DNA of 64,000 nt from Trypanosoma brucei (Eukaryota). Under the pieces are notes generated by a model. It was given only the letters and a program-made list of their open reading frames with translations. It did not search any database and had not been told where the DNA came from. The DNA lies in assembly GCA_000002445.1 (NCBI GenBank), contig CM000208.1, forward strand, positions 3,488,001-3,552,000. Direction: 5' to 3'. The translations under genes and the position numbers were made by a program. Numbering within the stretch: the stretch's first letter is position 1; the number at the start of each line of letters is the position of its first letter. Positions 1,233-60,234 of this stretch are shown here, piece after piece.

Positions 1233-1276
<44 letters not shown>

Positions 1277-13343: not shown

Positions 13344-13674
13344 ATAGTAACGACCCAATGTGCCTCCTTCCAAATTTGATATAACTAAAATGAGCTTGAT
13401 GCCCACGCAGACAGCGAGAAAGGTAGTTAACAATTTTAAAAGAAAAAGACGGAGAAGAAGAGAGAAATTACCTGTTGAAAAACGTTTCACTCTTTTTCGG
13501 TAGTGTGCGGAAGCTCATGTCGCCTCTTTGTCTTCACAAGAGCCTGTGAAACAAAAGGGCCTCATTGAAGGAAAAAAAAACCGAATTCCTCTGTGCATTA
13601 GCAAAAACAAGCAATAATAACAGAAGAGAAATTAATTCAAAGAAAAATAATTGAAACCACCGTTGACCGCCGAT

Positions 13675-14175
13675 TTACTTCTTCGGCTTGCTCTTGGGGA
13701 CGGGCACACGCTCCTGGGGCTGCGTCATAAAAAGTTGCACGTGGCACGGACTGCGCATGTACGGTGTGATACGACCATGTGCACGGAACGTACGGCGACG
13801 CACGCGAGGGGCCTGATCCACCTGAACGTGTTTAATGACCATTTTGCCGGGGTCAAGCCCCTTCTCGATGGCGTTCGCCTCGGCGTTCTTCAACAGCGAC
13901 AGCATTGCCACAACGGACTTGCGCGGCCAGCGTCCCTTCGTCTGCCCCCATTCCTTCGCTTGTGCTGTGTTACCAATCTTTCCATTGTAGCGCTTGAAGG
14001 GAATGCAGCGGGTTTTGGCCAGGACTTGACGGTACAGCTGCTGCGCTTTGCGGAGCTTCATACCGTTGATCACATTAGCCGTCTCGAAGGTATTCTTGTA
14101 GTGGCACCGGAGGTCGGCGATCTTCGCCTTGGCCGTCTTCGAGGAAACCTGTGGCTTGCGGGAGTAATGCACCAT
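13675..14175 (-). CDS. RPL17: 60S ribosomal protein L17 (uL22)
   Basis: 166 aa. MVHYSRKP...KNTFETA...RYNGKIGNTAQAKEWGQTKGRWPRKS...RRRTFRAHGRITPYMRSPCHV is colinear with eukaryotic RPL17. ATG at 14173-14175. Confidence 0.9.
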   Translation of the reverse strand: MVHYSRKPQVSSKTAKAKIADLRCHYKNTFETANVINGMKLRKAQQLYRQVLAKTRCIPFKRYNGKIGNTAQAKEWGQTKGRWPRKSVVAMLSLLKNAEANAIEKGLDPGKMVIKHVQVDQAPRVRRRTFRAHGRITPYMRSPCHVQLFMTQPQERVPVPKSKPKK

Positions 14176-14512
14176 GGCTTGGCGGTAAAGTTCCTATTAT
14201 ATATATATATATATTGGTGTGGCAGTGGAGAAGCGCGGTGCAAAACAGAGCAAAATCGGACAACGAGTATACGAGCAAATAAGAAACAGTGAAAACAAGC
14301 AGAAGCACAGGAATAGAGATCACAAAAAGAGGCACAAAAAATCCACTGCAGCAGAAAATTGGCAGAGCTATGCAAGGGAAAAAAAAAATGCCATCTACAA
14401 CTTACGAGGCGGCCTGCTGTATACAAACGACTGTCAAGGGCATGATGTCCAATCCCACCCACTGAATCCGGTATATTAGTTTGTATCAGATATGTATAAT
14501 ATATATATATAC

Positions 14513-15448
14513 TTACTTTCCCGCCTTACAACCTGCAATAATAGATTTCACGCGCGGAATGACTCTCGCGGCGATCGGTTGCAACCGTGGAACAAGACGT
14601 GGGGCCAGCACCACGGTGACAGCCACCTCCAAAGGCACAAGAAGCTTGTTCAGTAGAATTGAAAGAGCCAAAGCAGTCCAAAATGAGGGATATTTCTTCT
14701 CTCCCTTCCCGTTGCCGCTATCCACATCTGTAGATGGTGCCTCGGAAGTACCGTCCTCTTTTCCAACTTTGAACCCGTACGACCGAGCGTAAGCAACAAC
14801 GTCGATGTGAAGAAAGTACAAGGTAAAGAAAATAATAGCCAATAAAATGTTGTGAACGATGAGGTAAAGGAGCAAACCACCCGCGCCGTAAGCGGCCAGT
14901 TTATGTTTTAAACCAGAAACCCCGTGCGGCGACGGCCCCGATGGCGGAGGAGGATTAACGTCCGGTGGAAAACCGCTACACGAGGACGAGGATGAACCGA
15001 AGCCATCCGTATTCCCTACTATTCCGTTGGTCTTCACACCTAGGGAACCACTGTTTCTAAAAACACGATTCGCTTCGTCAACGAAAAGTTTTTGGCGTCG
15101 GTGATACGTTGGGAAGCGGGTCGTGAACCCCTCAGGGACTTCGAACGTTGTTACATTGGTTACAAGATGATGGTAGTACGGCTTACGGTACTGCAATGAA
15201 AAATATTCACGCCAAACTACACACGGATCGTCATAATGGGGAATCTCATTGCTTGTTATTGTAGCAGCAAACATCGGGCAAGGACGAGCCACACACATCG
15301 CGGCTCTAACCGCCGGTAGGACAACGCCTCTTCCAACAGCATGCTGATCCTTCACACCGTTCGACGGCGGGGCTACGCCGCTTGCCGCGTCATGTGCAAG
15401 ATATCGGCATAAACCTACGTTTAACCTCACACAAGCTATCCGCCGCAT
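14513..15448 (-). CDS. hypothetical protein with a WW-like motif (W...YYHHLVTNVTTFEVP) and C-terminal transmembrane helices
   Basis: ORF of about 311 aa. The first ATG is at 15448, while the track start at 15451 is TTG. The protein has a WW-domain-like W-x(n)-YYHH-x-T-x-T-x(3)-P signature, a poly-Ser/Pro linker and two hydrophobic segments (LLLYLIVHNILLAIIFFTLYFL). Confidence 0.45.
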   Translation of the reverse strand: MRRIACVRLNVGLCRYLAHDAASGVAPPSNGVKDQHAVGRGVVLPAVRAAMCVARPCPMFAATITSNEIPHYDDPCVVWREYFSLQYRKPYYHHLVTNVTTFEVPEGFTTRFPTYHRRQKLFVDEANRVFRNSGSLGVKTNGIVGNTDGFGSSSSSCSGFPPDVNPPPPSGPSPHGVSGLKHKLAAYGAGGLLLYLIVHNILLAIIFFTLYFLHIDVVAYARSYGFKVGKEDGTSEAPSTDVDSGNGKGEKKYPSFWTALALSILLNKLLVPLEVAVTVVLAPRLVPRLQPIAARVIPRVKSIIAGCKAGK

Positions 15449-15685
15449 CAAGTCCTTCTACGCAGTAATATGGAAGAAGATCTTCAAAAAAAAAATTATG
15501 AAGGGAAAGAGTCACTACAGTAGTCACAAAACGGGTAAACGAAACGAACGAAACAGACATGGAAGCACAGACAAGATGCTTTCCAATCGAAGACCTCCTT
15601 AGCAGAGGGGAGCACGTTGTCAAAAAAAAAGAAAATAACAAAAACAGTTGCCGTCCATCGGGCTTTTGCAGTGAGCACCAATGCT

Positions 15686-16486
15686 TTAAGCAGCCACCAT
15701 CTTCCTTCCCATAGAGAGGAACTCGGAGTGCTCGTCGGTGGGGTCGCGCGACACCTCCGTCTCCGCCCAGAGGTCGGGGGTAAGGAAGCCGTATGTCTTG
15801 CGCAGTGCATAGAATGTGGCCATGATGAAATTACCACGCGTACGCGTCTTACCACATGAGCTAGTATATACGTCCTCAACGCCGGCAAACTCAAGAATCT
15901 TCTTCGGCACAGGCGCAGCAACGATACCAGCACCACGTGGAGCAGGGATCAAGCGAACGGCAACGGAGCCGCACTTCCCGGTTACCTTGATAGGGATTGT
16001 ATGCGGTTCACCGATCTTGTTACCCCAGTAGCCACGGCGCACAGGCACAATACTCAGCTTCGCAGCGATCATTGACGCACGGATGGCCAGGGACACCTCC
16101 TTGCCGACGCGGGCGCCGACACCAATGTGGCCGTTACCGTCACCAACAACATTGAAGGCCTTGAAGCGTGTGCGCTGTCCGGCAGACGTTGCCTTCTGCA
16201 CGGGGAAAACAAGCATCATCTCATCACGGAGGTCGCCTTCGCGGATCAGTTGGTCCACGATCTGATGCTCTTTGATGGGCATCGAGAAGAGGAAGATTTC
16301 CTCCAGCGAGGTGATCTTTTGATCCTTCACAAGGCGGCCAAGTTTTGTGCATGGCACCCATTCCTTCTCATCACCACCACCGCCACGACCGCCACGACCA
16401 CCGCGACCGCCGCGACCGCCACGTCCGCCACGGCCACGACCGAAGCCGCGCTGCTCGCCACCTGTACCGCGTGGTGCGTCAGCCAT
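15686..16486 (-). CDS. RPS2: 40S ribosomal protein S2 (uS5), copy 1, with an N-terminal RGG box
   Basis: 266 aa. GRGGRGG N-terminal repeats, then [14 protein letters not shown]...[29 protein letters not shown]...[16 protein letters not shown], which is diagnostic of S2/uS5. ATG at 16484-16486. Confidence 0.92.
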
Positions 16487-16968
16487 TCTCGGTTCAACTA
16501 TGACAGCTTATCGTTTCAAATAACGGAGGAAAAAGCAATAAAAAGAGCAAAGACAAATTTTTTAAAAAAAAAACGAAAGAAGGTGCTGCAGTGATCAAGG
16601 GAAAGGGAACCTCAAAAAGGGAATGAAGTACGCCGACGCCCACAGACAAACATACGTAGTCAAAAATTAATCAGAACGCCTTCTAATCGCAGAGATCGCT
16701 CGGTGAAAGCCACCCGAGTAGCTAGCAGCATGCTAGAAGATATTGTACATCTGTCTCCCCGCGAAAGGGAAAAAAAAACATACAAATAAACATATATACA
16801 CGCTATAATACAGTTCCTTCGACCTCGTCTATTCCCCTGAACTCTATTACCACTACAGTTCCACTCTCTCAATTTTTCCAACACTTAATTTGTGATAATG
16901 AAAAAGTTGGGGAACCCTAACTTCAGGAATATATATGTATGAGTATTTTCACCGGCGTGCCCTCACTC

Positions 16969-19900
16969 CTACACCGTTGCGACTACCTGCGTTAGATGCT
17001 CCATGCGGCGAGCGGTGAGTGTGGCCTCCAGTTGGCCGAGGGCATCCTCGGCATCTACAGCGCCATCGAAGCGCAAAAGCACACCGAGGTCGACAAACAA
17101 CAAACTCTTTATTTGCCGTATAACCTCCGCCAACACCGGAAGGTGCGACTCCATTTCCAGCTTGCGGCTCCACAAGGAGAGTAGCTCTAATCTAGTGGCA
17201 TTGGAACGCAACAACTCAGCGAAATTCAGCAACTCACCCGCAGTAAAAGGGTTGTCAGACACAATAAGTTCCTGCAGAGACGCCAGTACTTCGTCTGGGA
17301 AAGCTTTAGCATCAGCCACTTCGGCATTCTTAATACTAAGAAACCTGAGGCCTGACGGCTTGAGGAACTTAAAGGCTGCCGATACACCCACTGCCCCGAG
17401 AGGTATTTGATCAAGCGACAATCTCTCCAGTGTTCCCTTACACCGAGATAGTAGGCATCCGAGTGCACCACCACCTTCAGCACCACCCAGGTTGTTACGG
17501 GACAACTGTAACTCCCGCAACACAAAGTTGCCTTCCGGGGATGCTCCGGACCACTTCAGAATGTGCTCTGGTCCCAATTCATTGCCATTAAGATGAAGGA
17601 TATCCAAACGGCTGCATAATCTACCCAGTGCCTCGACTTCATCGTCACCCCAACACTGGGAGAGGTCGTTAAAACCTAATAACAGTGTTGTGATATTACC
17701 AGCAGCAACTGCAGACAAAAGTTCAAAAAAACAGGAAGACTTGGAACCCTCTTGGTTGACGTCCGGGCACTCCGATGAATCGGGTAGTCCCTCCCCCAAT
17801 ACCTCCGTACCCGCTTCATGAGACAGCTCGACAAACCCAATGCGATTACCCTCAAGTGAAAGCGAAGTAATCGTCTTGTTGGTACACAAACTCTCAGCCA
17901 GTGCGCGGATGGTTTCCGGGTACATGTCATTGTACGCTAGATCAAGCACCTTAAGCGTGTTATTGCGACGAAGAGCCGCGAAGAGAGAAGAACAACCGGG
18001 CGTAACACCGCTGGGCACATCCACGACACTCGGCGCAACTGCCTCATCCCCATCGCTTGCAACATCTTCAACTACCTTTGCCGCGCGCTTCCTCCCGAAG
18101 ACATTGCGGCGCAAAAGAAGGCACTCTACCGTCTTATTTTCCGCGAGGACGTTTCCGATATGCTTCATTCCGTGGCTTCCAATCTGGCAACTTCCAAGGT
18201 CCAGTACTCGAAGGAAAGGAACGCAGCGTTTTTGTGAAGTAACGGGTATACTCCATTTTCCGAGAACATCCAGAAGCGCCGATATTTCCTCCTCTATGTT
18301 ATTGACATCCCCTTCTCCATCCGGGCTGGGTATGTGCTGATCATCTTCGTGCACCACCGGTTCCTGTTCTTCGTCCCCCCCGTGCTGGTCCTCGTCAAAT
18401 TCCCCACCATAATCACTTGCTGCGCCAAAAGTGGCTGTTTCGTCAATAGCCAAGACGTCTGCACTTGCCCTTGAGTTCCCTGTAATCCACGCCTTAAAGG
18501 TTTGTAACCACAAGAGGTACTCAGATTGCATCCGGTCACGCTCGCGCGACTCCTCAACCAGCGTCCTCTTGTAATCTACTGTCAATTTGTTGAGCAGTCG
18601 GTCCGCATCGTTCGACAAATCCTTTTGGATACGCTCTTCCTCCTCCTCCTCAAGCTGTAACTCGTGCCGTAACGCAGAGGCTAAAGCAACAGCACCTTTA
18701 TTCCCAATGGGGTTGCCACGCAGACGAAGGACCTGTATGTGTGACCACCCGCTCCGGCGCCTGCAGTACTTGTCAATCTCAACACGTTTTTCTTCAGCCA
18801 ATTCCTCACGGATGATGGCGTGCTCCTCCATCAGCAATGAAGCCTCACGTACATATTGATTAGCACAACCCCGGCGTAACTCCCTCTCCTCCTTGTATAA
18901 CCTACGAAATAGGCGGTTGAACTTCCTCTCTAGATGTGGTGGAAGGGGTTTGGGCTTCCCTTCTCCCTCTTCATCCTCCTCCTCTTCTTCTTCCTCCTCC
19001 CCTTCCTCTTCCGCATCCCCGTCAGCCGCGTCCTCCTGCTGCTCCTCATTCCCTTCATCCTCTTCATCCTCCTCGTCGTCATTTTCATTATCCGACCCAT
19101 CTTTCATTAGTGGTGAACCACCTTCCTGTGTGCCATCTTGGTCGGTGCCCTCTTCCTCCACGGGGTCCTCTACTTCCTCGTCATCTTCAAAATCATCCCC
19201 TTCATCCTCTTCTTCATCCTGGCCAATAAAAAAGGAAACGGATTCAAGACCAACACCATCATCCTCCTCGTCCACAACAGCATCTTCCTCCCCATCTTGC
19301 ACATCCTGAGGATAGAGCCGTGTGTCAGACTTCACGAGGGCTTCCAGCAGCTGCTGCGCCGTTATCCCATTGATGTTATTATTATTAAGGTTCAGGTCGA
19401 CAACGAACTTATTAAACTTAATAAATTCGACAAGTTGCGCTAACGCATCGCTGTCATCCTTCGTCAGACCTAAGTCATTGCCTTCAAGATCCAGAACGCG
19501 AATCATCGTATCCTTCAGCATCGGCAGCAGTGACTCAGCAACCCGACCAAACTTTGTGTTGGGCAAACCCAACACCTCAAGCTCCTTTGCTCCATGAAAA
19601 AAATTCTGGAAATCGTCAATTGAAGAACCTTCAACGAACTCACCGGAAACTGTAAGGGAACGAAGATGCCCCAACATACGGTGGTTTGCACATATAACGG
19701 TAAAAATGTCATGAATCGCAACAGTTTTCGCCGGTGCTAACATGAGAGTGACATGTCGCATATTATCCGATGTCCTGTAGTCTTTGGATTGCGCCTCCGT
19801 TCGTACAATGTGATTAAGAAAATCCACTATTTGATCTGAGGGAAGCTGAACATTCGAAAGAGCTTCGGGTGACGGAAACGCATTCCATATGTGTGAGGTA

Positions 19901-20280
19901 TGGTAACCTACAAGTGGCTGACCTCTTGGAGTCGTACAGCGGACCTCATCCTCAACATTCGCAACAAGTGGTTGGGTACCGTTAGAAAAAACGCGCGCGG
20001 CAGAACAACTACTGCATGGCCACCATGCCAAATTAGATCTAGAACATACAATAGACGCGTTGAACCGTAAAATTGAACACTCCACTTCCCGCGCCACCTC
20101 CGCCTCAAGAGCCTTGGCTGCAATGCCGTGTTGGGCCGCGATATCACCCTTTACTTTCGCACTGTTTACCCGTGGAGGAGCAGCAGCAACTCCACTTTCT
20201 GCGGCACAACTCCCCAAATGCAAACTATCAAACTGCACAGCATCGTCGGCGGAGGAAAATGTACACCATGATCGTGACAT
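16969..20280 (-). CDS. leucine-rich-repeat (RNI-like LRR) protein with a long central poly-acidic (D/E) tract
   Basis: About 1103 aa. Repeated LxxLxLxxNxI/LG units (LDLEGNDLG, LDLGSCQIGSHG, LDLAYNDMY, LSLEGNRIG). An acidic run EEEDEGDDFEDDEE...EEEGEEEEEEEEDEEGEG. The real ATG is at 20280. The track adds one GTG codon. Confidence 0.6.
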   Translation of the reverse strand: MSRSWCTFSSADDAVQFDSLHLGSCAAESGVAAAPPRVNSAKVKGDIAAQHGIAAKALEAEVAREVECSILRFNASIVCSRSNLAWWPCSSCSAARVFSNGTQPLVANVEDEVRCTTPRGQPLVGYHTSHIWNAFPSPEALSNVQLPSDQIVDFLNHIVRTEAQSKDYRTSDNMRHVTLMLAPAKTVAIHDIFTVICANHRMLGHLRSLTVSGEFVEGSSIDDFQNFFHGAKELEVLGLPNTKFGRVAESLLPMLKDTMIRVLDLEGNDLGLTKDDSDALAQLVEFIKFNKFVVDLNLNNNNINGITAQQLLEALVKSDTRLYPQDVQDGEEDAVVDEEDDGVGLESVSFFIGQDEEEDEGDDFEDDEEVEDPVEEEGTDQDGTQEGGSPLMKDGSDNENDDEEDEEDEGNEEQQEDAADGDAEEEGEEEEEEEEDEEGEGKPKPLPPHLERKFNRLFRRLYKEERELRRGCANQYVREASLLMEEHAIIREELAEEKRVEIDKYCRRRSGWSHIQVLRLRGNPIGNKGAVALASALRHELQLEEEEEERIQKDLSNDADRLLNKLTVDYKRTLVEESRERDRMQSEYLLWLQTFKAWITGNSRASADVLAIDETATFGAASDYGGEFDEDQHGGDEEQEPVVHEDDQHIPSPDGEGDVNNIEEEISALLDVLGKWSIPVTSQKRCVPFLRVLDLGSCQIGSHGMKHIGNVLAENKTVECLLLRRNVFGRKRAAKVVEDVASDGDEAVAPSVVDVPSGVTPGCSSLFAALRRNNTLKVLDLAYNDMYPETIRALAESLCTNKTITSLSLEGNRIGFVELSHEAGTEVLGEGLPDSSECPDVNQEGSKSSCFFELLSAVAAGNITTLLLGFNDLSQCWGDDEVEALGRLCSRLDILHLNGNELGPEHILKWSGASPEGNFVLRELQLSRNNLGGAEGGGALGCLLSRCKGTLERLSLDQIPLGAVGVSAAFKFLKPSGLRFLSIKNAEVADAKAFPDEVLASLQELIVSDNPFTAGELLNFAELLRSNATRLELLSLWSRKLEMESHLPVLAEVIRQIKSLLFVDLGVLLRFDGAVDAEDALGQLEATLTARRMEHLTQVVATV

Positions 20281-20570
20281 CACAAATATATTTACTCCTA
20301 TCTTACACAGGTAACAATCAGGTCACAACAAGGTAAAAAAGAAAAAGAAAAATAACTAAACTACCAACAAACACACCAAAGTACAAACCGTACATAACTC
20401 TGATTAACATATGCTACGAACCTTCATGCATCACCAAATAAAAAAAATAACAAACAAAAAGACACATTAACCAGAATTTTTAAAAAAAAACAAAAATAAA
20501 AATATACATAAACTAGGATCACCAACAAAAAAAATTATCATACAAAGCAACAACACAACATCTAAACTAT

Positions 20571-20726
20571 TTACCATGAATTAACGACCAACTTAAATAT
20601 TGCCTCCCCTTCGGGATTCTTGTCAGGATGTAACTCGAGCGCCTTCAGTTTGTAAGCCTCTCGTATTCCGTCCTTAGACGCAGTCCTTGGAACCCCCAGG
20701 ATCGCATAATAGTCCGCCTGCTGCAT
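20571..20726 (-). pseudogene. truncated J-domain gene fragment (51 codons) left at the boundary of the 3.1 kb segmental duplication
   Basis: Encodes [51 protein letters not shown]. The first 48 aa are identical to the N-terminus of the DnaJ protein at 35440-36771. Identity ends at the duplication boundary (about 20578) and a stop follows immediately. Confidence 0.75.
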
Positions 20727-21275
20727 ACCGTACTTTTTCCCTTCCCTTTCTCAGCAGTAATAAGGGAGAAGTGCAGTGGTAAAAGAAGTAGAAATAAAAT
20801 AAGAGACAGCGACTTTAAGAAGCAGCAACAGACTCATAGATCCAACAAGACAATCAATAGCGAGCTCGGCAAGCACGTAAGCACCGCCCCCATTTACACA
20901 CAAGAAAAAGGAAACATATACTCCGTTGCTTACACGGTCAAGGGGGAAGGATCATAGGGAAACCAGGCAAGCAAAGCCACAATACGTTTCGCCCCACTAT
21001 CGGCAGGGTAAACCACCACATATTAAAGACGAACAGGAAGACATGGAGACAACACGCCACGCACAGAAGCCACACCCAACGTATATAAGTGCGCGAGTCC
21101 CATCTTCTCACACTAGCCATCTATTACATTCAATACTGCATAGGACAAGGGCGTACAGAGAAAATTCAAGCAACCATTCTGAACCGGTTATCCAACAAAT
21201 AAAAATATGCTGCATTCCCTTAACCATCCACACCACAGCATCCTAAAAGGAATGACGGTAACGCACTACGTATGT

Positions 21276-22433
21276 CTATTCACCGTTCCGCCGTCTCTCC
21301 TCCTCTATCGCATCTTCCCATTCAAGATCCTCCATTATGCTCTCCGACTGCCGCAGTGCAGCTGGAAGGCGCGAAAGGACGAAGCCTACTGCGCAAAGTA
21401 ACACAATGGTCTCACCCCACAGTCCAATATATTCCTGCATGAAGTCCAGCCACGAAATTATCACACGGTATTTAAACGTTCCAAGCGTCATCTCCTGTCC
21501 CCATCCACCACTGCGAGCACTGGTATACCGCATATGCTCTGGAGGCTTTATCCCATAGAGAAGATAGTAATTACGTGCCTCAGGGTTCACAAGAATGTCG
21601 TATGCATCCTTCAGCTCCTCAAGAACCATCGACCGGTCTTCCTCATTCTTCTCCGTCTCTTCCACTAATTTCTTTTTTGTTTCGTATGCTCTCTTCAGTT
21701 CAGTGGGGTCGACTGAGCGTGCGTCCTTCGTATCCTTCGTGTCCAGCAAAACACTGAAAAGTTCACGGTCTACCTGAGAGGCAAGGCGATTGTACGCAAG
21801 CTCCACCTGTTGATTATTGGCTTCGCACGCACGACCACAGTGAACCAGCTGCCCTCGCGCATCCTGATGTTCTTTATACGCCTTACGGATTTCCTGCCGG
21901 ATGCGGTAGTTCTCCCGCCGTCGTTCCTTGTCAAGGTCCTCTCCACCTGCCTCATCAGCAGCAGCTCCGGTAGATTTCGGACGGATTCTCCCCTTCACAC
22001 CCAATATTTCGTAATAGCTCTCCGCTTCACTTGGAGTGACGGCACCATCATGAGTCGGATTGACCTCACCGAACCCTTTGCCACTCTCAATCTGAGGTGG
22101 CTCCAGGTTAAACTCCACGTCATACTTCGCTAACGCAAGCAACGAAATGGCAATCACTACCGCTACGGAGAAAAAAATGCGAAACATAGAGCCAGAATTT
22201 TCATGCTCGCCTACGACAGCATCCCACTCGGCTTGAGTGATTATACCACGGTTGGGGTCCCGTCGAGAGTAGCGGTTGGTATTAGCAAACCGTGAATTGG
22301 GCCGCTGCACACCATACATGGCGTTGTGCCGTGCAAACACATCCTCCCGAGCAGCACGAGCCGCGCTCTCCTCCAGCTTGTTACGCCGCTCCTGAGCCTG
22401 CTGCTGCCGTATTTGCGCTGCTCGAGGTATCAT
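21276..22433 (-). CDS. hypothetical membrane protein with a split or atypical J-domain-like sequence (copy 1 of 2)
   Basis: 385 aa from the first ATG at 22433. The track start is TTG. It has an N-terminal TM helix (MFRIFFSVAVVIAISLLAL), then YYEILGV ... KRAYETKKKLV ... AYDILVNPEARNYY reminiscent of J-domain helices II and IV, and a C-terminal TM segment. It is 99.7% identical to 37321-38478. Confidence 0.5.
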   Translation of the reverse strand: MIPRAAQIRQQQAQERRNKLEESAARAAREDVFARHNAMYGVQRPNSRFANTNRYSRRDPNRGIITQAEWDAVVGEHENSGSMFRIFFSVAVVIAISLLALAKYDVEFNLEPPQIESGKGFGEVNPTHDGAVTPSEAESYYEILGVKGRIRPKSTGAAADEAGGEDLDKERRRENYRIRQEIRKAYKEHQDARGQLVHCGRACEANNQQVELAYNRLASQVDRELFSVLLDTKDTKDARSVDPTELKRAYETKKKLVEETEKNEEDRSMVLEELKDAYDILVNPEARNYYLLYGIKPPEHMRYTSARSGGWGQEMTLGTFKYRVIISWLDFMQEYIGLWGETIVLLCAVGFVLSRLPAALRQSESIMEDLEWEDAIEEERRRNGE

Positions 22434-32265: not shown

Positions 32266-32527
32266 TAACAATCAACCGACAAAATAAAAATTACTACAGA
32301 CAATCCTTTTCTAGCAGAAAAATAACAAAAACCCTTTAGAGGCACCCCGAAAGGGGAAGAACATGAGGAAAAAGAACGAAGCATTCATAATACAACCACA
32401 AGCACTAAAAAGATAGGAGGAAAAAGAACAAGGTAAACGTACAAAGAGGCAACACACTCAAAACATTAAATTAAAAATACCAAACCGAAAAATAAAGCAG
32501 AAACAATCCTGTACAGCCCGGATCTCG

Positions 32528-33328
32528 TTAAGCAGCCACCATCTTCCTTCCCATAGAGAGGAACTCGGAGTGCTCGTCGGTGGGGTCGCGCGACACCTCC
32601 GTCTCCGCCCAGAGGTCGGGGGTAAGGAAGCCGTATGTCTTGCGCAGTGCATAGAATGTGGCCATGATGAAATTACCACGCGTACGCGTCTTACCACATG
32701 AGCTAGTATATACGTCCTCAACGCCGGCAAACTCAAGAATCTTCTTCGGCACAGGCGCAGCAACGATACCAGCACCACGTGGAGCAGGGATCAAGCGAAC
32801 GGCAACGGAGCCGCACTTCCCGGTTACCTTGATAGGGATTGTATGCGGTTCACCGATCTTGTTACCCCAGTAGCCACGGCGCACAGGCACAATACTCAGC
32901 TTCGCAGCGATCATTGACGCACGGATGGCCAGGGACACCTCCTTGCCGACGCGGGCGCCGACACCAATGTGGCCGTTACCGTCACCAACAACATTGAAGG
33001 CCTTGAAGCGTGTGCGCTGTCCGGCAGACGTTGCCTTCTGCACGGGGAAAACAAGCATCATCTCATCACGGAGGTCGCCTTCGCGGATCAGTTGGTCCAC
33101 GATCTGATGCTCTTTGATGGGCATCGAGAAGAGGAAGATTTCCTCCAGCGAGGTGATCTTTTGATCCTTCACAAGGCGGCCAAGTTTTGTGCATGGCACC
33201 CATTCCTTCTCATCACCACCACCGCCACGACCGCCACGACCACCGCGACCGCCGCGACCGCCACGTCCGCCACGGCCACGACCGAAGCCGCGCTGCTCGC
33301 CACCTGTACCGCGTGGTGCGTCAGCCAT
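32528..33328 (-). CDS. RPS2: 40S ribosomal protein S2 (uS5), copy 2
   Basis: The 266 aa product is identical to copy 1. DNA identity begins at the stop codon and ends 4 nt upstream of the ATG. The track's MRM start at 33334 is GTG. The true ATG is at 33326-33328. Confidence 0.92.
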
Positions 33329-33675
33329 TCTCACTGTTCTTGGACGTCTGCTTTGGGCGGGTCGACGGAAGTCGGCAGTGTTGAGTAGAAGTAGAAGAAA
33401 AAGAGGGAAATCGACAGGTAGGGAATCATATATATATATATATATTTATATGCAAATGTGTTAAAAAACTCAGAAATTCATGGTGATCAAATAGAAACAC
33501 CGCCGAAGCAGTGTCATTTAACGACAAAAAGTTGTTTGTCTGCGAGAAAAGTAATATCTGATGCCCTGACACGGTAAAGGATTTAACCCCTACATCGCTG
33601 CATCAGATGGGTATATCAGGGCGGTAGACAAAAGAGGAATTATTAGCAGGGGACAGTGGTTTAGATGACGAGTTC

Positions 33676-34851
33676 CTAGAGTTTTGTCTCCCTCTCCAGA
33701 AGACGCAAAAAATTTCCCGGCACAAGTCCCTTCCGCTCCAATTTCTTGTCATCAGTTGCGGTAGTTGCCTGGCACCAACCATTTTCCGTGTAGTCATCAA
33801 CAATAAACCGGTCCCCGGTCTTGAATCCAATAAACCCCTCTTTCTCGGGGGATACATAATCAAACATGGCTACGTAGACACGTCCACCATTACAGTGTTG
33901 CGCATCGTGTCGATTTGACGAGCGAGCCGTTGCCTCTACTGTCTCATCAGACCACTCCTCCTCACTACTACAATCTTCACTCTCAGACAGTTCATCCTGT
34001 AATTCATCATCCTCCTCACTCAGGGTCAAGTCAGAATCTTTTCGTCTTAAAGACTGCCGAGCTGTCCAGTTACGGTACCGAAGATGTGCCCGGTACAGTA
34101 TTTCCATGAGTATAAATAGTGCAACCCTTAAAACCCACGACTTCCATCTTCCGCCTGCTGGAGGCGCAGAAGACCCACTGGGGGCTAATTCCGCGGCTTT
34201 TGCAACCGCTGCTCCAGAAATCCCTTTTGGTACTGCACCCTCCTGACTCTTTACTATAGACTTCAGAGCCTTTATACTGTAGTACGTTCCAAAGCCAACC
34301 CCAAACAGTTCTAAGCCCGACCGCATTAATTGGAAAAGAATCTGAAGCACATGACCAACGACCTCGATGGTTGAGTGTATAGCCAGCTGCTTCTTCTGTT
34401 GGCGATGCCTTTCTACAGCCTCCTTTTCTTGTCGCCGGCGCGCCCGTCTCTCCCGGCGAGTTTCGGTTGCTAAGGGTTTAGCAAACTGCAGAGGCTGCTG
34501 CTGGTCAGGCTGGGAAGGTAACAACCCACCACCAGCCTGGTCACCGGGAAGCGCTAAGGCCCCATTCATGCCATTGCCGCCTATAGCACCACCAACTGGA
34601 TTGCCCAGAATGCCGTTCATCCCCATGCCACCATAGGTACCGCTCATTGAAGAAAGACCTCCTCCATACATTGAACTCATCCCGCCACCAAGGCCACCAT
34701 AAACTGAGCTCATCCCTCCGCCATAGCCACCGTACATTGAAGACATTCCAGTGCCGTACATCGATGGCATCCCTGCACCATAACCACCGTACATTGAAGA
34801 CATTCCACTGCCGTACATCGATGGCATCCCTGCACCATAACCACCGTACAT
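33676..34851 (-). CDS. PEX13: peroxin PEX13-like glycosomal import protein with an N-terminal YG/MYGG repeat region, a central membrane region, a C-terminal SH3 domain and a C-terminal TKL tripeptide
   Basis: The N-terminus has (S)MYGGYGAGMP repeats, encoded by a 57 bp DNA tandem repeat. Hydrophobic core. A C-terminal SH3-like sequence RVYVAMFDYVSPEKEGFIGFKTGDRFIVDDYTENGWCQ...GLVPGNFL. It ends ...ETKL. The YG-rich plus SH3 architecture is diagnostic of PEX13. The first ATG is at 34851, while the track start at 34926 is GTG. Confidence 0.7.
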   Translation of the reverse strand: MYGGYGAGMPSMYGSGMSSMYGGYGAGMPSMYGTGMSSMYGGYGGGMSSVYGGLGGGMSSMYGGGLSSMSGTYGGMGMNGILGNPVGGAIGGNGMNGALALPGDQAGGGLLPSQPDQQQPLQFAKPLATETRRERRARRRQEKEAVERHRQQKKQLAIHSTIEVVGHVLQILFQLMRSGLELFGVGFGTYYSIKALKSIVKSQEGAVPKGISGAAVAKAAELAPSGSSAPPAGGRWKSWVLRVALFILMEILYRAHLRYRNWTARQSLRRKDSDLTLSEEDDELQDELSESEDCSSEEEWSDETVEATARSSNRHDAQHCNGGRVYVAMFDYVSPEKEGFIGFKTGDRFIVDDYTENGWCQATTATDDKKLERKGLVPGNFLRLLERETKL

Positions 34852-34860
34852 TTTTCCTTC
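34690..34860 (-). repeat. 57 bp in-frame tandem repeat (about 3 units) encoding the MYGGYGAGMPSMYG(S/T)GMSS repeats of PEX13
   Basis: cattgaagacattcca[c/g]tgccgtacatcgatggcatccctgcaccataaccaccgtaca is repeated back to back. Confidence 0.8.
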
Positions 34861-35439
34861 GCTTCGAGTATACACGCGCTGATATATGTAGATATACTTG
34901 GGTGCGTGCACGTCCTCTAGAAACACTTTCCTTTCCCTTTCACCTTTACACTTTTTTCGCAGTGTTAAGCTCGATTGCCATGGGGGGGGGGGTGAGTGAC
35001 AAGGAAGCAGAGTATAGATTTCGGCAAGATAGAATAGGTTATGTTGATGGAATCAATATTACAGCTGATGCAAAGCGTATTTCACGTTAACCCGCACACA
35101 TACTTGATAATAAAGCCGCCCTCTCATGTTCCGTGACGTGAAATTGATTCGCAAGCGGCAGACGCAAGGAAGAAAAAAAACGCGCAACAACCCAGCCCCA
35201 GGAGTAGCTCTGGGGGCAAAAAAAAAAACTGGTGACTAAAGAGGGCACGACGGCAGGGGGGTCAACAGCAGAGGAAGAAAAAAAATTGGAGGCGTTAATA
35301 ACAACAACAACTTGTAAAAACAAAAACGAGAAAAAACCTTCGTACATAAAGGGAGAGTATGCTTCTACACACATGCTACCGCGTGAAGGAAATCTTTTTA
35401 ATTATTGGTGAACACTTGGAGAAACAAATTGGAGAAGGT

Positions 35440-36771
35440 TTATAGTTTCCACTCATCCAAGTTAATTGGTTGACCTGATCGCTTCGCCTCCCGCAATGCA
35501 TCAAGCTTCGCCTGCATTTCGGCCTCAATGCGGTCGGTTTCACGTCTCATTGCCTCCACGTCGTCTTGATGACGCTGGCGTTCCAAGACAATTTGTTCCA
35601 ACAAGGCCTTTCGTTTCCCATCAAGCTCTCGTGTTGCCTTCAGGCGTGCTTCCTCCTGCTCAGCGGTCAGTTGGCGCAATGTCTCTTCCTGGTGCTGCTC
35701 CTCCTGACGTTGGAGCTCTTCTTGCCTCAACCGCGCTTCCTCTTCCTGTTTCCGCTTCGCCTCTCGAGCTTTCTCCGATGCTTCGTGTTGAGCTTGTTGA
35801 GCAAGGGCTTCTATTATCTTCAGCTCCGCTTTTTGCAATTCCGATGCTATATCTTGTTCGCGCTGCCTCTGGCGTTCACGGCGTGAGCGTTCCTGTTCAG
35901 TTGTGTCTTGCTGAGCCTGTTCCTTCTCAGTAGCCAAGCGTCGCCGCTCCTCCTCTAGTTCTCTCTTTTTAGTAGCAAGCTCCTTGAGATGGGTATCGAG
36001 ATCCACCTGCTGTTTCTTCTGAAACTCAGCATACTCAGCCATCTTCTGTTTCTCTTGTTCGGCCTTGTGTTGCCTTGTAGCCGCCTCCCTCTCACGGCGA
36101 CGGTTCTCTTCTTCCCACGCCATCCTTGCCCTCTCGCGCTCCAACTCCTCTTCCCGTTCGCGCTCTCTCTTCTCCTGGAGATTCCTCCATTCCTCCGCTC
36201 GCTTCTTTTCCTCGGTCTCCAACTGTTTTGCATAGTCTAGTTTAGCTTTGCAAACCTCTTCGGCCTGTCTAAGTTCTTCTTGTTTTCTTTTGAACCATTC
36301 TGAGAAGCTTGTTTCCGAGTTGCCGGGTCTACGAAAGCCTTCACAGTTATTTTTCGAATTCGGGGCACTGCCCCCGTACGTCCCCTTTGTATACTGCATA
36401 AAGATATCTTCAAACAATTTCTCTTCTGACATCGGGTTTGCTCTAGAAGTACGCGTACCATAAGAATTGGGAACAGGGCCCGCCGCGTTCGCTGCCCTTT
36501 CAGTGGCATTTGGTCTCGGTACATTGTGGGCTCGCGCCGTAGGACCATCCCGCCGAACTTCTCTCAGGCCTATCTCTTGATCATACTTTCGACGCTTAGT
36601 GGGCGAACGCAATATCTGGTATGCATTAACGACCAACTTAAATATTGCCTCCCCTTCGGGATTCTTGTCAGGATGTAACTCGAGCGCCTTCAGTTTGTAA
36701 GCCTCTCGTATTCCGTCCTTAGACGCAGTCCTTGGAACCCCCAGGATCGCATAATAGTCCGCCTGCTGCAT
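35440..36771 (-). CDS. DnaJ (J-domain) protein with a long charged coiled-coil (E/R/K/Q-rich) C-terminal region
   Basis: 443 aa. ATG at 36769-36771. The N-terminal canonical J domain is [60 protein letters not shown], with the HPD motif. The remainder is highly charged ER/EK repeats, such as EEERRRLATEKEQAQQ. Confidence 0.8.
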   Translation of the reverse strand: MQQADYYAILGVPRTASKDGIREAYKLKALELHPDKNPEGEAIFKLVVNAYQILRSPTKRRKYDQEIGLREVRRDGPTARAHNVPRPNATERAANAAGPVPNSYGTRTSRANPMSEEKLFEDIFMQYTKGTYGGSAPNSKNNCEGFRRPGNSETSFSEWFKRKQEELRQAEEVCKAKLDYAKQLETEEKKRAEEWRNLQEKREREREEELERERARMAWEEENRRREREAATRQHKAEQEKQKMAEYAEFQKKQQVDLDTHLKELATKKRELEEERRRLATEKEQAQQDTTEQERSRRERQRQREQDIASELQKAELKIIEALAQQAQHEASEKAREAKRKQEEEARLRQEELQRQEEQHQEETLRQLTAEQEEARLKATRELDGKRKALLEQIVLERQRHQDDVEAMRRETDRIEAEMQAKLDALREAKRSGQPINLDEWKL

Positions 36772-39738
36772 ACCGTACTTTTTCCCTTCCCTTTCTCAGC
36801 AGTAATAAGGGAGAAGTGCAGTGGTAAAAGAAGTAGAAATAAAATAAGAGACAGCGACTTTAAGAAGCAGCAACAGACTCATAGATCCAACAAGACAATC
36901 AATAGCGAGCTCGGCAAGCACGTAAGCACCGCCCCCATTTACACACAAGAAAAAGGAAACATATACTCCGTTGCTTACACGGTCAAGGGGGAAGGATCAT
37001 AGGGAAACCAGGCAAGCAAAGCCACAATACGTTTCGCCCCACTATCGGCAGGGTAAACCACCACATATTAAAGACGAACAGGAAGACATGGAGACAACAC
37101 GCCACGCACAGAAGCCACACCCAACGTATATAAGTGCGCGAGTCCCATCTTCTCACACTAGCCATCTATTACATTCAATACTGCATAGGACAAGGGCGTA
37201 CAGAGAAAATTCAAGCAACCATTCTGAACCGGTTATCCAACAAATAAAAATATGCTGCATTCCCTTAACCATCCACACCACAGCATCCTAAAAGGAATGA
37301 CGGTAACGCACTACGTATGTCTATTCACCGTTCCGCCGTCTCTCCTCCTCTATCGCATCTTCCCATTCAAGATCCTCCATTATGCTCTCCGACTGCCGCA
37401 GTGCAGCTGGAAGGCGCGAAAGGACGAAGCCTACTGCGCAAAGTAACACAATGGTCTCACCCCACAGTCCAATATATTCCTGCATGAAGTCCAGCCACGA
37501 AATTATCACACGGTATTTAAACGTTCCAAGCGTCATCTCCTGTCCCCATCCACCACTGCGAGCACTGGTATACCGCATATGCTCTGGAGGCTTTATCCCA
37601 TAGAGAAGATAGTAATTACGTGCCTCAGGGTTCACAAGAATGTCGTATGCATCCTTCAGCTCCTCAAGAACCATCGACCGGTCTTCCTCATTCTTCTCCG
37701 TCTCTTCCACTAATTTCTTTTTTGTTTCGTATGCTCTCTTCAGTTCAGTGGGGTCGACTGAGCGTGCGTCCTTCGTATCCTTCGTGTCCAGCAAAACACT
37801 GAAAAGTTCACGGTCTACCTGAGAGGCAAGGCGATTGTACGCAAGCTCCACCTGTTGATTCTTGGCTTCGCACGCACGACCACAGTGAACCAGCTGCCCT
37901 CGCGCATCCTGATGTTCTTTATACGCCTTACGGATTTCCTGCCGGATGCGGTAGTTCTCCCGCCGTCGTTCCTTGTCAAGGTCCTCTCCACCTGCCTCAT
38001 CAGCAGCAGCTCCGGTAGATTTCGGACGGATTCTCCCCTTCACACCCAATATTTCGTAATAGCTCTCCGCTTCACTTGGAGTGACGGCACCATCATGAGT
38101 CGGATTGACCTCACCGAACCCTTTGCCACTCTCAATCTGAGGTGGCTCCAGGTTAAACTCCACGTCATACTTCGCTAACGCAAGCAACGAAATGGCAATC
38201 ACTACCGCTACGGAGAAAAAAATGCGAAACATAGAGCCAGAATTTTCATGCTCGCCTACGACAGCATCCCACTCGGCTTGAGTGATTATACCACGGTTGG
38301 GGTCCCGTCGAGAGTAGCGGTTGGTATTAGCAAACCGTGAATTGGGCCGCTGCACACCATACATGGCGTTGTGCCGTGCAAACACATCCTCCCGAGCAGC
38401 ACGAGCCGCGCTCTCCTCCAGCTTGTTACGCCGCTCCTGAGCCTGCTGCTGCCGTATTTGCGCTGCTCGAGGTATCATACTTAGCAACTTAGAGCTACAC
38501 TCCCCATTAGTAACAAATTAAAAACAGGATTCAAGGAAGAAGAGGGGAAAAAAAAAAGAAACGGTGATACGACGGGGAAAATAATCGAAGGAAAGCAGTT
38601 TGGTGCGGAAATAGGATTGCGCAAACAATCGCAATGTAGTCGCCCACATACCACACAGTCAGTTACGTCCCTGTTATTACGTAAAATGATTAACGTCGAT
38701 CATATAAATGATTTCATTATTCTTTTATTTTCCCCCACTCATACAGAAAACTTCCATTTACTTCCGTTGCATATTCATCTTTCTTCTCTTGCCTTATAAT
38801 AGTTTTTCTCGCTGTTATTCGCTGGTCCCTTCTTAATGTTCGTTTCCCCTCCCCACTCCAACCCGGGCATAGGAAACGTGAAACACAAACATATAATCTC
38901 AGATCACACAGTCAGACAAAGAGCTCCCCGCGCAGCCTCTCCCACCAAACGTGGCTTTCCTACATCCTTTTGTCCACATTCCTATTCCTATTGCGGGGGG
39001 GATTTGTAGTAACCTGTAACCACAGCGTGGTCACGCTCGAACGGTTCCAGCGAGGCCTGTTCCTTCGGTCTCAGCCCTGAGTCCTTCAGCTTCTGCACCT
39101 CCGATGCAAAAACAGTAGCAGAGTCCGCTGTCGAATCAATGCAATTGGCCTTTATCGAAATAACAAAACCACCGTTCTGTTTCAAAAAGTGTTGTGCATT
39201 CAGAGCTAATATTCGCGCCTGGTCGGGTTGAGCAACATCCATAAAGATGCAGTCTACCAAACGCGGTATCAGCATCCGATATTTCTGCGGGTAGCGGGCA
39301 TCCTCAAGGATCGGGACAATATTACTCCGACGTTTCGACATCTCCTCCAGGTCACGCCCGCTACGGTGTGAGAACTCCACAGCGTACACAACACCCTCCG
39401 GACCCACCAAATCAGACACATGACTAACAGTTGTCCCACTGGCAGCACCCAGGTATAACACTGTTGAGCCCGGTTCCATGTATATCTGAGCAACACCAGC
39501 GTAAATCGCCGCCGCAAGTTTCGACCGGTATGGATTCCACACGCGGAACTCGCAGGACTCGGTCTCTCCGGCAATTGTACCGCTTACGCGCTTCTCACCG
39601 TATATGGAGACACCAGGTACGAGTGACTTTGTGGCAAGAGTGTCTTTACCCGCAAGGAGGTAGCAGCCACGCATACGAGCATGGGGTTGGAATATGTTGC
39701 CCTTCATCCCACCGCCGGCTTTGCCTCCGCCTCGTCCA
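36623..39738. repeat. segmental duplication copy A2, the likely source copy, whose flanking genes are intact
   Basis: Same block as 20578-23694. Here the left end continues into a full DnaJ gene and the right end into a full GAR-domain fibrillarin. Confidence 0.9.
37321..38478 (-). CDS. hypothetical membrane protein with a split J-domain-like sequence (copy 2 of 2)
   Basis: Identical to 21276-22433 except for a few substitutions (N to K, I to R). It lies inside the 3.1 kb duplicated block. Confidence 0.5.
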   Translation of the reverse strand: MIPRAAQIRQQQAQERRNKLEESAARAAREDVFARHNAMYGVQRPNSRFANTNRYSRRDPNRGIITQAEWDAVVGEHENSGSMFRIFFSVAVVIAISLLALAKYDVEFNLEPPQIESGKGFGEVNPTHDGAVTPSEAESYYEILGVKGRIRPKSTGAAADEAGGEDLDKERRRENYRIRQEIRKAYKEHQDARGQLVHCGRACEAKNQQVELAYNRLASQVDRELFSVLLDTKDTKDARSVDPTELKRAYETKKKLVEETEKNEEDRSMVLEELKDAYDILVNPEARNYYLLYGIKPPEHMRYTSARSGGWGQEMTLGTFKYRVIISWLDFMQEYIGLWGETIVLLCAVGFVLSRLPAALRQSESIMEDLEWEDAIEEERRRNGE

Positions 39739-39902
39739 CCTCCGCGGCCCCCACCTCGGCCTCCTCCGCGACCGCCACGGCCGGAGCCACGACCCCCGCC
39801 GCGTCCACCACCGCCGCCGCCGCCGAAAGCTCCCCGTCCTCTACCGCCACGGCCAAAGCCGCCACCACCAGCACCGCGGCCGCCCCCTCTACCACCGCGC
39901 AT
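38988..39902 (-). CDS. NOP1: fibrillarin (rRNA 2'-O-methyltransferase NOP1) with an N-terminal GAR domain
   Basis: 304 aa. ATG at 39900-39902. The N-terminal roughly 65 aa are RGG/GGRG repeats. The core [40 protein letters not shown]...[37 protein letters not shown]...[11 protein letters not shown]...[13 protein letters not shown]...[13 protein letters not shown] is canonical fibrillarin. Confidence 0.92.
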
Positions 39903-40332
39903 TGCTACTCAGATTACTTCGGGCACCTAATTATTAAAAAACGTTAAGATAAAGTTGATCGATATATGAATTTTAAAGGACCGGAGGAGAACTTTTACGA
40001 TAAACTGTTGCATGTTAATAAAAAGCATAACTTTTATGCAGTGACGGACAATAGATGAAATAGCAGCAAGTAATAGTAATTCAGCGTCACCAGACCCGGT
40101 ACAAAAGGAGGATAAATTGCGCTTGTGTATATTTCATGAAGCACCCGCTTCCTTTTTTTCAGTTCTGCTTTCCTGCATGGACGAGCGGGGCGAGAGAAGA
40201 AGCAAGTCAGATGTGCTTAAGCAAAAAAATGGGGGCGCCACATAATCGTCCTCGCTTCCACTTATTTTTGGAGTACGTACACTCACTCTTGTGCATACAA
40301 ACAGCCTTATTGGTATTGTGGTCACGGTCACG

Positions 40333-60117: not shown

Positions 60118-60234
<117 letters not shown>

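Follow-up and report, generated by a model that had tools for sequence, protein, structure and literature searches.

The 64,000-nucleotide stretch of DNA analyzed here (the window) derives from chromosome 10 of Trypanosoma brucei, and the locus of interest spans genes Tb927.10.14580–14750. It harbors two groups of genes that are both located entirely on the minus strand. The first group consists, in order of coordinates, of the genes for ribosomal protein L17 (13675–14175), a WW/FAM210 membrane protein (14513–15451), RPS2, a leucine-rich repeat (LRR) protein (16969–20280), a J-like membrane protein of 385 amino acids, and fibrillarin. In the second group, genes for a SNARE-like protein and a proline-rich protein are followed by RPS2, an SH3 protein (PEX13), DnaJ, the J-like protein and fibrillarin. 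These assignments are based on Pfam, in which the SNARE-like protein (323 amino acids) had no match. Self-comparison of the whole window recovered exactly two dispersed direct repeats within 13.6–40 kb, referred to as block A (RPS2) and block B (J-like protein and fibrillarin). Both pairs had been noted in an initial annotation of the sequence, and their offsets of 16842 bp (RPS2) and 16045 bp (J-like/fibrillarin) were reproduced. The two repeats are far beyond chance, and identity falls to background within 1–3 nt at all four block edges.

The two copies of block A (15686–16490 and 32528–33332, minus strand) have a length of 805 bp and are 100% identical at an offset of 16842 bp, yet they are embedded in unrelated flanks. 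The proximal (downstream) copy comprises precisely the RPS2 coding sequence (15686–16486; 266 amino acids; Tb927.10.14600 by position) plus 4 nt located 5' of the ATG, and its product contains the N- and C-terminal Pfam domains of Ribosomal_S5. In the distal (upstream) copy, the RPS2 coding sequence extends from 32528 to 33328 and corresponds to Tb927.10.14710 (identifier taken from a table in PMC4689576).

Block B is larger (20576–23696 and 36621–39740, minus strand; 3121 and 3120 bp), and its copies are separated by a spacer of 12,924 bp. They differ by seven substitutions and one 1-nt indel in a pairwise alignment or, in a MAFFT alignment, by nine variable columns; past the indel at 22499 the offset changes from 16045 to 16044. 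Both ends of the block are intragenic, a feature that had been overlooked in the initial annotation. The distal copy starts at codon 55 of the fibrillarin gene, continues through the J-like gene with its intergenic regions and ends after the first 150 nt, i.e. 50 codons, of the DnaJ coding sequence. Complete fibrillarin and DnaJ genes are present only at this copy. Full-length fibrillarin/NOP1 (38988–39902, minus strand; Tb927.10.14750; Pfam Fibrillarin, E = 1.9e-99) is a protein of 304 amino acids with a Gly/Arg-rich N-terminus that can be aligned end to end with human fibrillarin. The complete DnaJ gene (35440–36771, minus strand; Tb927.10.14730), which is traversed by the block edge at 36621, encodes 443 amino acids with the Pfam DnaJ domain at residues 5–64.

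The proximal copy of block B is placed in the intergenic region between the Rtf2 and LRR genes. Direct reading of the upstream half of this site (23697–24060) revealed a polypyrimidine tract (around 23810–23890) and AG dinucleotides ahead of a truncated fibrillarin gene, and the downstream half (20284–20575), which precedes the LRR gene, is T-rich. The block breaks off within the fibrillarin coding sequence, and stop codons and AT-rich sequence are found upstream of 23696; the proximal fibrillarin gene (22944–23630, minus strand; Tb927.10.14630) lacks the Gly/Arg-rich domain. Its first usable ATG corresponds to Met77 of the full-length protein, which leaves a product of 228 amino acids (Pfam Fibrillarin, E = 8e-100) that is annotated as intact also at the proximal site of T. 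b. gambiense. At its other end the block leaves a DnaJ stub (20571–20726, minus strand), a 51-codon frame (MQQADYY...KLVVNSW*) which is made up of the first 50 DnaJ codons plus one codon and a stop contributed by flanking sequence. The J-like gene is complete in both copies (21276–22433, Tb927.10.14620; 37321–38478, Tb927.10.14740; minus strand). Its two 385-residue products differ by one residue (N/K; positions 21816/37861), and orthologs, named 'J domain-containing protein' in UniRef, are found throughout the Kinetoplastea.

The repeat structure of block B and its deletion by crossover are already known from work of Jones et al. (2015, PLoS Negl Trop Dis 9:e0004299, PMC4689576), who described a 3.1 kb/12.9 kb/3.1 kb arrangement on T. 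brucei chromosome 10. Genes (Tb927.10.14620/14630 and 14740/14750), repeat length and spacer are the same as in the window. Loss of the 12.9-kb interval was observed experimentally in hemizygous form and attributed by these authors to homologous crossover between the 3.1-kb repeats; a cultured clone from which one allele of the entire interval had been lost remained viable (PMC4689576). Crossover deletion is the only documented outcome of recombination at these repeats (PMC4689576). Jones et al. brought up the repeats only to account for a change in copy number, and their article does not deal with the origin or polarity of the repeats, the truncated fibrillarin, the DnaJ stub, outgroup synteny or the RPS2 pair (PMC4689576). 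What we report here is the anatomy of the repeats, the polarity of copying, the absence of the derived copy from outgroups, and substitutions that are concerted between copies.

Assemblies are notoriously error-prone at near-identical repeats of 0.8–3 kb, and duplicated contigs or a mis-join might in principle account for both blocks. Yet three independent assemblies agree in structure and junctions, specific sites distinguish the copies, and read depth documents hemizygous loss of the interval between the two block B repeats (PMC4689576). The probability of an assembly artifact is thus practically negligible.

Could both pairs descend from one old tandem segmental duplication reaching from RPS2 to fibrillarin, of which subsequent insertions and indels left only RPS2 and J-like/fibrillarin recognizable? 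This was the main reading of the initial annotation, and it is in line with the direct orientation and similar offsets (16842 and 16045 bp) of the two pairs and with the position of RPS2 downstream, in the sense of transcription, of J-like/fibrillarin in both groups. However, a comparison of 13–28 kb with 28–41 kb by relaxed blastn (word size 7) and tblastx yielded no match beyond blocks A and B except for low-complexity RGG and acidic runs; in particular, the decayed similarity that had been anticipated between the LRR gene and the PEX13/DnaJ intervals was not detected. Moreover, the DnaJ stub directly abuts the LRR intergenic region with no adjoining remnant of PEX13 or RPS2.

The two pairs also differ in phylogenetic distribution. 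T. vivax, T. melophagium and T. cruzi all carry RPS2 at both positions, one after PEX13 and the other after the LRR gene. By contrast, no J-like or fibrillarin copy is present in the Rtf2–LRR interval of these three species or of Phytomonas; in the three trypanosomes the LRR gene comes immediately after Rtf2. Since outgroups possess the RPS2 pair but not the second J-like/fibrillarin pair, the two pairs must have arisen at different times. A single segmental duplication is accordingly very unlikely, whereas the fallback offered along with it, i.e. at least two separate events, proved correct. In the comparison with T. cruzi and Leishmania that had been suggested as a check, T. cruzi shares the RPS2 positions and lacks the second J-like/fibrillarin pair, and Leishmania enriettii retains the distal gene order. 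Two copies of RPS2 at these sites are not universal because at the proximal position of Phytomonas just a 46-amino-acid relic of RPS2 is found. In L. enriettii RPS2 was seen at the distal position, the only one of the two loci covered.

The same comparison reveals which copy of block B is the older one. The distal arrangement of fibrillarin, J-like, DnaJ, PEX13 and RPS2 recurs in T. vivax, T. cruzi and L. enriettii, which marks the distal copy as ancestral. Absence from the outgroups together with ends that cut through genes identifies the proximal block as a copy of the upstream block made in the T. brucei lineage. The insertion can be dated firmly only to the period after the split from T. 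vivax and before that of T. b. brucei and T. b. gambiense. For T. congolense, the closest outgroup, one J-like protein is on record whose accession is nine genes away from that of Rtf2, a distance compatible with the distal but not with the proximal position; this single record stems from a draft assembly and may reflect a collapsed repeat.

If RPS2 was duplicated before the Trypanosoma species diverged, the identity of its copies calls for an explanation. Within species the coding sequences are 100% (T. brucei), 99.7% (T. vivax) and 99.9% (T. melophagium) identical, compared with only about 80% between species, and the 300-nt flanks, at 45–53% identity, are unrelated. The borders of the identical tract also vary. 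In T. melophagium it starts at −6 nt and ends with the stop codon, whereas it extends from −33 to approximately +80 nt in T. vivax and from the ATG to approximately +170 nt in T. cruzi, the latter as judged by a between-assembly comparison. Such borders, which shift around the coding sequence from species to species, are more readily explained by conversion than by a duplication with fixed limits. In addition, at three sites in RPS2 the two identical copies of the window strain differ from the two T. b. gambiense copies. On the strength of these sequence comparisons, RPS2 is regarded as an ancient pair whose copies are very probably homogenized by gene conversion that is restricted to the coding sequence.

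A processed mRNA, copied back into the genome by RNA-mediated retroposition, might also have generated a second RPS2 gene with coding-sequence boundaries, and indeed similarity in T. brucei and T. melophagium starts 4–6 nt before the ATG and stops at the stop codon. However, the spliced leader, both untranslated regions and the poly(A) tail expected from such an event are neither shared nor present at the borders, and the species-dependent borders found in T. vivax and T. cruzi fit conversion tracts. We thus consider retroposition highly improbable. Direct reading of the block borders disclosed no poly(A), spliced-leader remnant or target-site duplication, and block B includes unprocessed intergenic sequence.

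For block B, the case for conversion comes from comparison of closely related genomes. The junctions are identical in three assemblies of the T. brucei group, i.e. the window, T. b. gambiense DAL972 (FN554973.1) and GCA_003543875.1. Within a genome the paralogous copies differ at 5–9 sites, compared with 13–19 differences between T. b. brucei and T. b. gambiense orthologs. About nine sites show a strain-specific state that is common to both copies, and a single one (23694) is paralog-specific in all three genomes. Substitutions that are strain-specific and yet shared by the two copies imply that conversion continues. Furthermore, four of the nine differences in the window lie at most 51 nt from the block edges (binomial P of about 1e-4), a pattern that would result from more frequent conversion of the interior than of the edges; this clustering is clear in the window strain and weaker in T. 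b. gambiense. Both blocks thus display what defines concerted evolution: paralogs are closer to each other than to positional orthologs, lineage-specific substitutions occur in both copies, and the duplication is older than the lineages compared.

It could be argued that both pairs are simply very recent and that identity of 99.7–100%, which in block B includes non-coding sequence, reflects youth, making conversion unnecessary. Against this stand the two conserved RPS2 positions in species with about 80% identity to T. brucei, each with its own near-identical pair, and the strain-specific substitutions common to both copies of blocks A and B. Independent recent duplications are also implausible in view of the junctions shared between subspecies. 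Recent origin of both pairs is therefore very improbable.

Taken together, our data very probably reflect two separate duplications of very different age, both of which were later homogenized by intrachromosomal gene conversion. The two dispersed RPS2 copies would have occupied the same syntenic positions since before the Trypanosoma species diverged. Their flanks probably lost similarity long ago, while purifying selection maintained that of the coding sequence, which may serve as a substrate for homologous recombination by which one copy repeatedly overwrites the other. Coincidence of the identical tract with the coding sequence would be explained in this way because sequence under purifying selection remains a recombination substrate. 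Block B, by contrast, would have originated on the T. brucei lineage when a segment of the ancestral fibrillarin, J-like and DnaJ cluster was copied within its transcription unit to a site approximately 13 kb further downstream, the Rtf2–LRR intergenic region. With breakpoints inside the fibrillarin and DnaJ coding sequences, this event would have created an intact extra J-like gene, a truncated fibrillarin gene and the 51-codon DnaJ stub. Copying preceded the separation of T. b. brucei and T. b. gambiense, with conversion ongoing since, and the repeats also act as crossover substrates, which leads to deletion of the 12.9-kb interval.

The original copying route may have been a process such as microhomology-primed templated repair of a break. 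A two-step route is a less likely but not far-fetched alternative. Unequal crossover would first have generated a tandem duplication of a 16-kb unit (23697–39740), and a 12.9-kb deletion, beginning at DnaJ codon 51 and reaching the end of the second unit, would then have followed, with the later history as for a one-step insertion. By reasoning, this route predicts the observed junctions exactly, and large deletions at the locus do occur in culture (PMC4689576). Nevertheless, it invokes two events where one is enough, and no intermediate was present among the three assemblies examined.

Gene-converted duplications of this kind are ordinary and largely documented in trypanosome genomes. In a survey by Jackson (2007, BMC Evol Biol 7:54, PMC1855330), concerted evolution is described as a widespread homogenizing force among T. 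brucei duplicates, and the PGK and hsp70 genes are cited as classic cases of conversion. The duplicates treated there resemble blocks A and B in that paralogs of one genome, in a polycistronic context, cluster according to species or strain and not according to position, and in that coding sequences are homogenized whereas flanks and untranslated regions differ. The survey covered only tandem arrays of more than three copies, whereas the pairs described here are two-copy, dispersed, 13–17 kb apart and interspersed with unrelated genes. A text search of the article for 'fibrillarin' and 'ribosomal protein' was negative; the loci in the window were apparently not analyzed there. According to a further article (PMC11098316), at least two copies with near-identical coding sequences and divergent untranslated regions are the norm for trypanosomatid ribosomal protein genes, e.g. 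S16 and L13a of Leishmania. The RPS2 pair fits this norm. The topic of that article is expression compensation in Leishmania and not the evolutionary mechanism or the RPS2 locus.

The initial annotation further held that RPS2 and fibrillarin are preferentially kept in two doses. For RPS2 this is plausible, and we infer maintenance for dosage from the conservation of the two-copy state across Trypanosoma. It is not supported for fibrillarin, whose second copy is a lineage-specific, truncated by-product. Judged by its predicted product, the proximal gene lacks the combination of a Gly/Arg-rich domain and a complete methyltransferase core that characterizes functional fibrillarin/NOP1, and the 228-residue product would match the methyltransferase core alone. 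It may in this respect resemble archaeal fibrillarin and the crystallized eukaryotic cores (PDB 1NT2, 2IPX, 7SE6), which are likewise devoid of a Gly/Arg-rich domain. The 210-amino-acid fibrillarin of A. fulgidus aligns from residue 77 of the full-length T. brucei protein. By contrast, the human crystal constructs start at residues 68–70, i.e. 7–9 residues before the T. brucei truncation. Relative to these human cores the proximal product thus loses 7–9 core residues, and with them the first conserved strand.

It is tempting, though doubtful, to speculate that Tb927.10.14630 is not inert and may be expressed as a T. brucei-specific, archaeal-style methyltransferase core with altered localization or partners. 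A micro-protein might similarly be produced from the 51-codon J-domain stub. If so, selection on the truncated fibrillarin, the stub or the additional J-like gene would account for retention of the 3.1-kb copy in all T. brucei subspecies even though the repeats can recombine. This reading is compatible with the intact frame of the truncated fibrillarin in the window, with the intact product annotated in T. b. gambiense, with the polypyrimidine tract and AG sites upstream, and with the alignment of archaeal fibrillarin from residue 77. The intact frame does not require selection, as conversion from the functional copy would preserve it. Upstream ATGs (at approximately 23750 and 23727) precede the start codon of the truncated gene.

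Only two dispersed direct repeats were detected within 13.6–40 kb when the 64-kb window was compared with itself by blastn. Block A (805 bp) is present at 15686–16490 (proximal copy) and 32528–33332 (distal copy), is 100% identical and has an offset of 16842 bp. Block B extends over 20576–23696 and 36621–39740 (3121 and 3120 bp, respectively), with seven substitutions and one 1-nt indel between the copies and an offset that changes from 16045 to 16044 bp. At all four block edges background identity is reached within 1–3 nt. The two repeated blocks and both offsets in the initial annotation were thus correct, and its gene labels agree with Pfam, which supports L17, a WW/FAM210 membrane protein, RPS2, an LRR protein, fibrillarin, Rtf2, a Brix protein, an SH3 protein (PEX13), DnaJ and a clathrin light chain. 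All genes of the region are located on the minus strand, as expected of one polycistronic unit, and their order agrees with that of Tb927.10.14620–14750 in the table of Jones et al. (2015, PMC4689576). Neither Rfam nor a tRNA scan detected an RNA gene anywhere in the window, so none accounts for the repeat borders. Chromosome 10 carries both copies of each block in T. b. gambiense DAL972 and in another T. brucei-group assembly, and the 385-aa J-like membrane protein shares 99% identity with a DAL972 protein. The repeats are real, and an assembly artefact as their source is rejected.

Block A consists of the RPS2 coding sequence alone, ending at the stop codon on one side and 4 nt before the ATG on the other. 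The borders of block B cut through genes. In the distal copy, the downstream edge falls within a complete DnaJ gene (443 aa), 150 nt from its start, and the upstream edge near codon 55 of an equally complete fibrillarin gene (304 aa), past most of the Gly/Arg-rich domain. Given these edges, the proximal copy contains one intact J-like gene (start codon ATG at 22433), a shortened fibrillarin gene and a DnaJ stub of 51 codons running into T-rich intergenic sequence. Because whole genes are found in the distal copy only, this copy is the source and the proximal one derived.

The initial annotation had envisaged either one old tandem segmental duplication from RPS2 to fibrillarin or at least two events. 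A single duplication was not borne out by a search for decayed similarity, the check that the initial annotation had suggested, as comparison of 13–28 kb with 28–41 kb (blastn with word size 7; tblastx) revealed none beyond blocks A and B, the sole exceptions being RGG and acidic low-complexity matches. The single-duplication reading is wrong and that of two events right, with three Trypanosoma relatives having RPS2 at both positions but no second fibrillarin/J-like copy between Rtf2 and LRR. Loci of relatives were fetched around the orthologues of the J-like, LRR and Rtf2 genes, and genes were placed by tblastn. The homologue search with the LRR protein was dominated by low-complexity words and gave five matches, including the T. 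vivax and T. melophagium proteins; that with Rtf2 retrieved few species, Leishmania not among them. In T. vivax, T. melophagium and T. cruzi the order is fibrillarin, J-like, DnaJ, PEX13, RPS2, Pro-rich, SNARE and Brix, followed by two hypothetical genes, Rtf2, LRR, extra genes in some, RPS2, the WW protein, L17 and kinesin. All three have RPS2 at both positions, and in each the LRR gene comes directly after Rtf2, across a gap of 234–400 nt that holds neither a fibrillarin nor a J-like copy. T. congolense has a single recorded J-like protein whose accession lies nine genes from that of Rtf2; accession order, the only measure here, is weakly in favor of the distal position only.

Leishmania enriettii retains the order fibrillarin, J-like, DnaJ, PEX13, RPS2. 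At its locus (L012, 19319–21209) the distal RPS2 is followed by tandem genes for a 111-aa histone (916-bp unit, copies 100% identical) in place of Pro-rich, SNARE and Brix, and hence Trypanosoma synteny stops directly after RPS2. In Phytomonas sp. Hart1 a 46-aa fragment matching the RPS2 C-terminus is all that is left of the proximal gene (L011, 16186–16323). The Phytomonas sequence that lies upstream of the pair of hypothetical genes ahead of Rtf2 has the opposite orientation, and synteny is broken there. The gap between LRR and proximal RPS2 (L009, 13758–16092, in T. melophagium; L010, 15587–16186, in T. cruzi; L011, 14192–15022, in Phytomonas) contains an aldo-keto reductase gene in all three, and T. 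melophagium and T. cruzi have one more gene there, a glycosyltransferase (Pfam Glyco_transf_15) according to the T. melophagium call. T. brucei and T. vivax have neither the reductase nor a further gene in the LRR–RPS2 gap, and this patchy presence points to separate gene loss or gain at the locus. In the T. cruzi assembly GCA_003719455.1, partial and complete RPS2 sequences lie downstream of LRR (L010, 14985–15206, 18416–18763, 18920–19603 and 19809–20285), and the distal RPS2 is apparently interrupted (1686–1985 and 2042–2305); the multiple pieces could stem from amplification at the locus or, this hybrid genome being rich in repeats, from noise in the assembly. In the PEX13-like SH3 protein, the N-terminus (34600–34900) comprises short tandem Gly/Tyr/Met-rich repeats (YGGYGAGMPSMYG...), which are also visible as internal direct repeats in the orthologues of T. 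vivax (L006, 13472–13700) and T. cruzi (L013, 13299–13486).

Within species, the RPS2 coding sequences are 100% (T. brucei), 99.7% (T. vivax) and 99.9% (T. melophagium) identical, versus about 80% between species, and the 300-nt flanks are unrelated. The identical tract follows the coding sequence closely, with borders that shift slightly from species to species, and comparison of T. brucei strains revealed three sites that had changed jointly in both copies. Judged by these sequence comparisons, RPS2 represents an ancient pair that is kept identical, in the manner classically seen when gene conversion drives concerted evolution. Concerted evolution is widespread among T. brucei duplicates (Jackson 2007, PMC1855330), and in Leishmania ribosomal protein genes are reported to be present, as a rule, in two copies whose untranslated regions diverge (PMC11098316). 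The RPS2 pair offers a clean example, with conversion limited to the coding sequence, over 13–17 kb and in several Trypanosoma species.

Block B is younger than the RPS2 pair, yet likewise converted. Its junctions are identical in all three T. brucei-group assemblies, which makes it older than the split between T. b. brucei and T. b. gambiense. In a six-sequence alignment, both copies have a strain-specific state in common at about nine sites, and 5–9 sites differ between paralogues within a genome as compared with 13–19 between orthologues across strains. Only position 23694, at the extreme edge, is paralogue-specific in all genomes. Of the nine differences in the window, four are no more than 51 nt from the edges (P about 1e-4), as would be predicted from more frequent conversion of the interior. 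Taken together, the process is ordinary concerted evolution of one old and one young duplicate.

The proximal fibrillarin is preceded by stop codons and AT-rich sequence, so its first usable ATG is Met77; the predicted product of 228 aa agrees with the T. b. gambiense annotation. Upstream lie a polypyrimidine tract and AG sites, but also further ATGs. Since the alignment with a 210-aa archaeal fibrillarin begins at the same residue as the truncated copy, it is conceivable that the putative product forms a folded core. As the functional copy would preserve the frame through conversion, an intact frame is no sign of selection. Loss of a start codon in the proximal copy by change of Met66 from ATG to GTG was considered and dropped. 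Codon 66 (position 39707 in the full-length gene, 38988–39902) is ATG in the window strain's full-length gene only and GTG (Val) in the other five copies, which makes GTG the common state; as these include the full-length T. b. gambiense gene, the change is merely a polymorphism.

Block B may originally have been copied when a break in the Rtf2–LRR intergenic region was mended in one step by templated repair. Alternatively, a tandem duplication of 16 kb and a subsequent deletion of 12.9 kb would produce the same junctions. Retroposition is rejected, as poly(A), a spliced-leader remnant and a target-site duplication are all missing at the borders. The block B copies are separated by 12,924 bp in the window, and a drug-selected clone had lost one allele of the interval between the repeats, for which the authors invoke homologous crossover (Jones et al. 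2015, PMC4689576). The larger repeat pair was thus already known from the literature, and its recombination has been seen experimentally.

Reads, RNAi fragments, CRISPR guides and peptides do not distinguish Tb927.10.14600 from 14710 (RPS2) or 14620 from 14740 (J-like), and mostly not 14630 from 14750 (truncated and full-length fibrillarin). For fibrillarin/NOP1, RPS2 and the J-like protein, knock-down and expression results thus cover both copies. The direct repeats also represent a recombination hazard, since a 12.9-kb deletion is possible and was seen in culture; the interval contains ten genes, including those for PEX13 and the Brix-domain ribosome-biogenesis factor. These practical consequences are modest, and the understanding of trypanosome genome evolution is unaltered.

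Other repeats were found elsewhere in the window. A 76-nt direct repeat at 5592–5796 (copies 5598–5673 and 5721–5796; 95% identical) lies close to where a DEAD-box helicase gene (5511–7568, minus strand) has its 3' end. It is also matched by the portion of RPS2 and fibrillarin that codes for RGG, and hence has the appearance of a Gly/Arg-rich tail. Short palindromic and low-complexity repeats are located at 490–558 and 1238–1295, in a region (1–4500) without an ORF of at least 150 aa, and related runs at about 5072–5113, 30806–30832 and 33426–33451. Likewise, 56650–64000 contains no ORF of at least 150 aa on either strand (ORFs leaving the window end being unlisted). GC content is lower at 56.5–58 kb, a (TG)n microsatellite lies near 60155–60235, and the AT skew changes sign around 60–62.5 kb; the region may be the start of the minus-strand transcription unit or a strand-switch region. 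At 52711–56644, a 1380-bp unit is repeated three times head-to-tail with 99.8–99.9% identity. Its minus-strand ORFs (52895–53818, 54275–55198 and 55655–56578) encode a 307-aa mitochondrial carrier (Pfam Mito_carr, E = 6e-68), and the triplet is a conventional tandem gene array.
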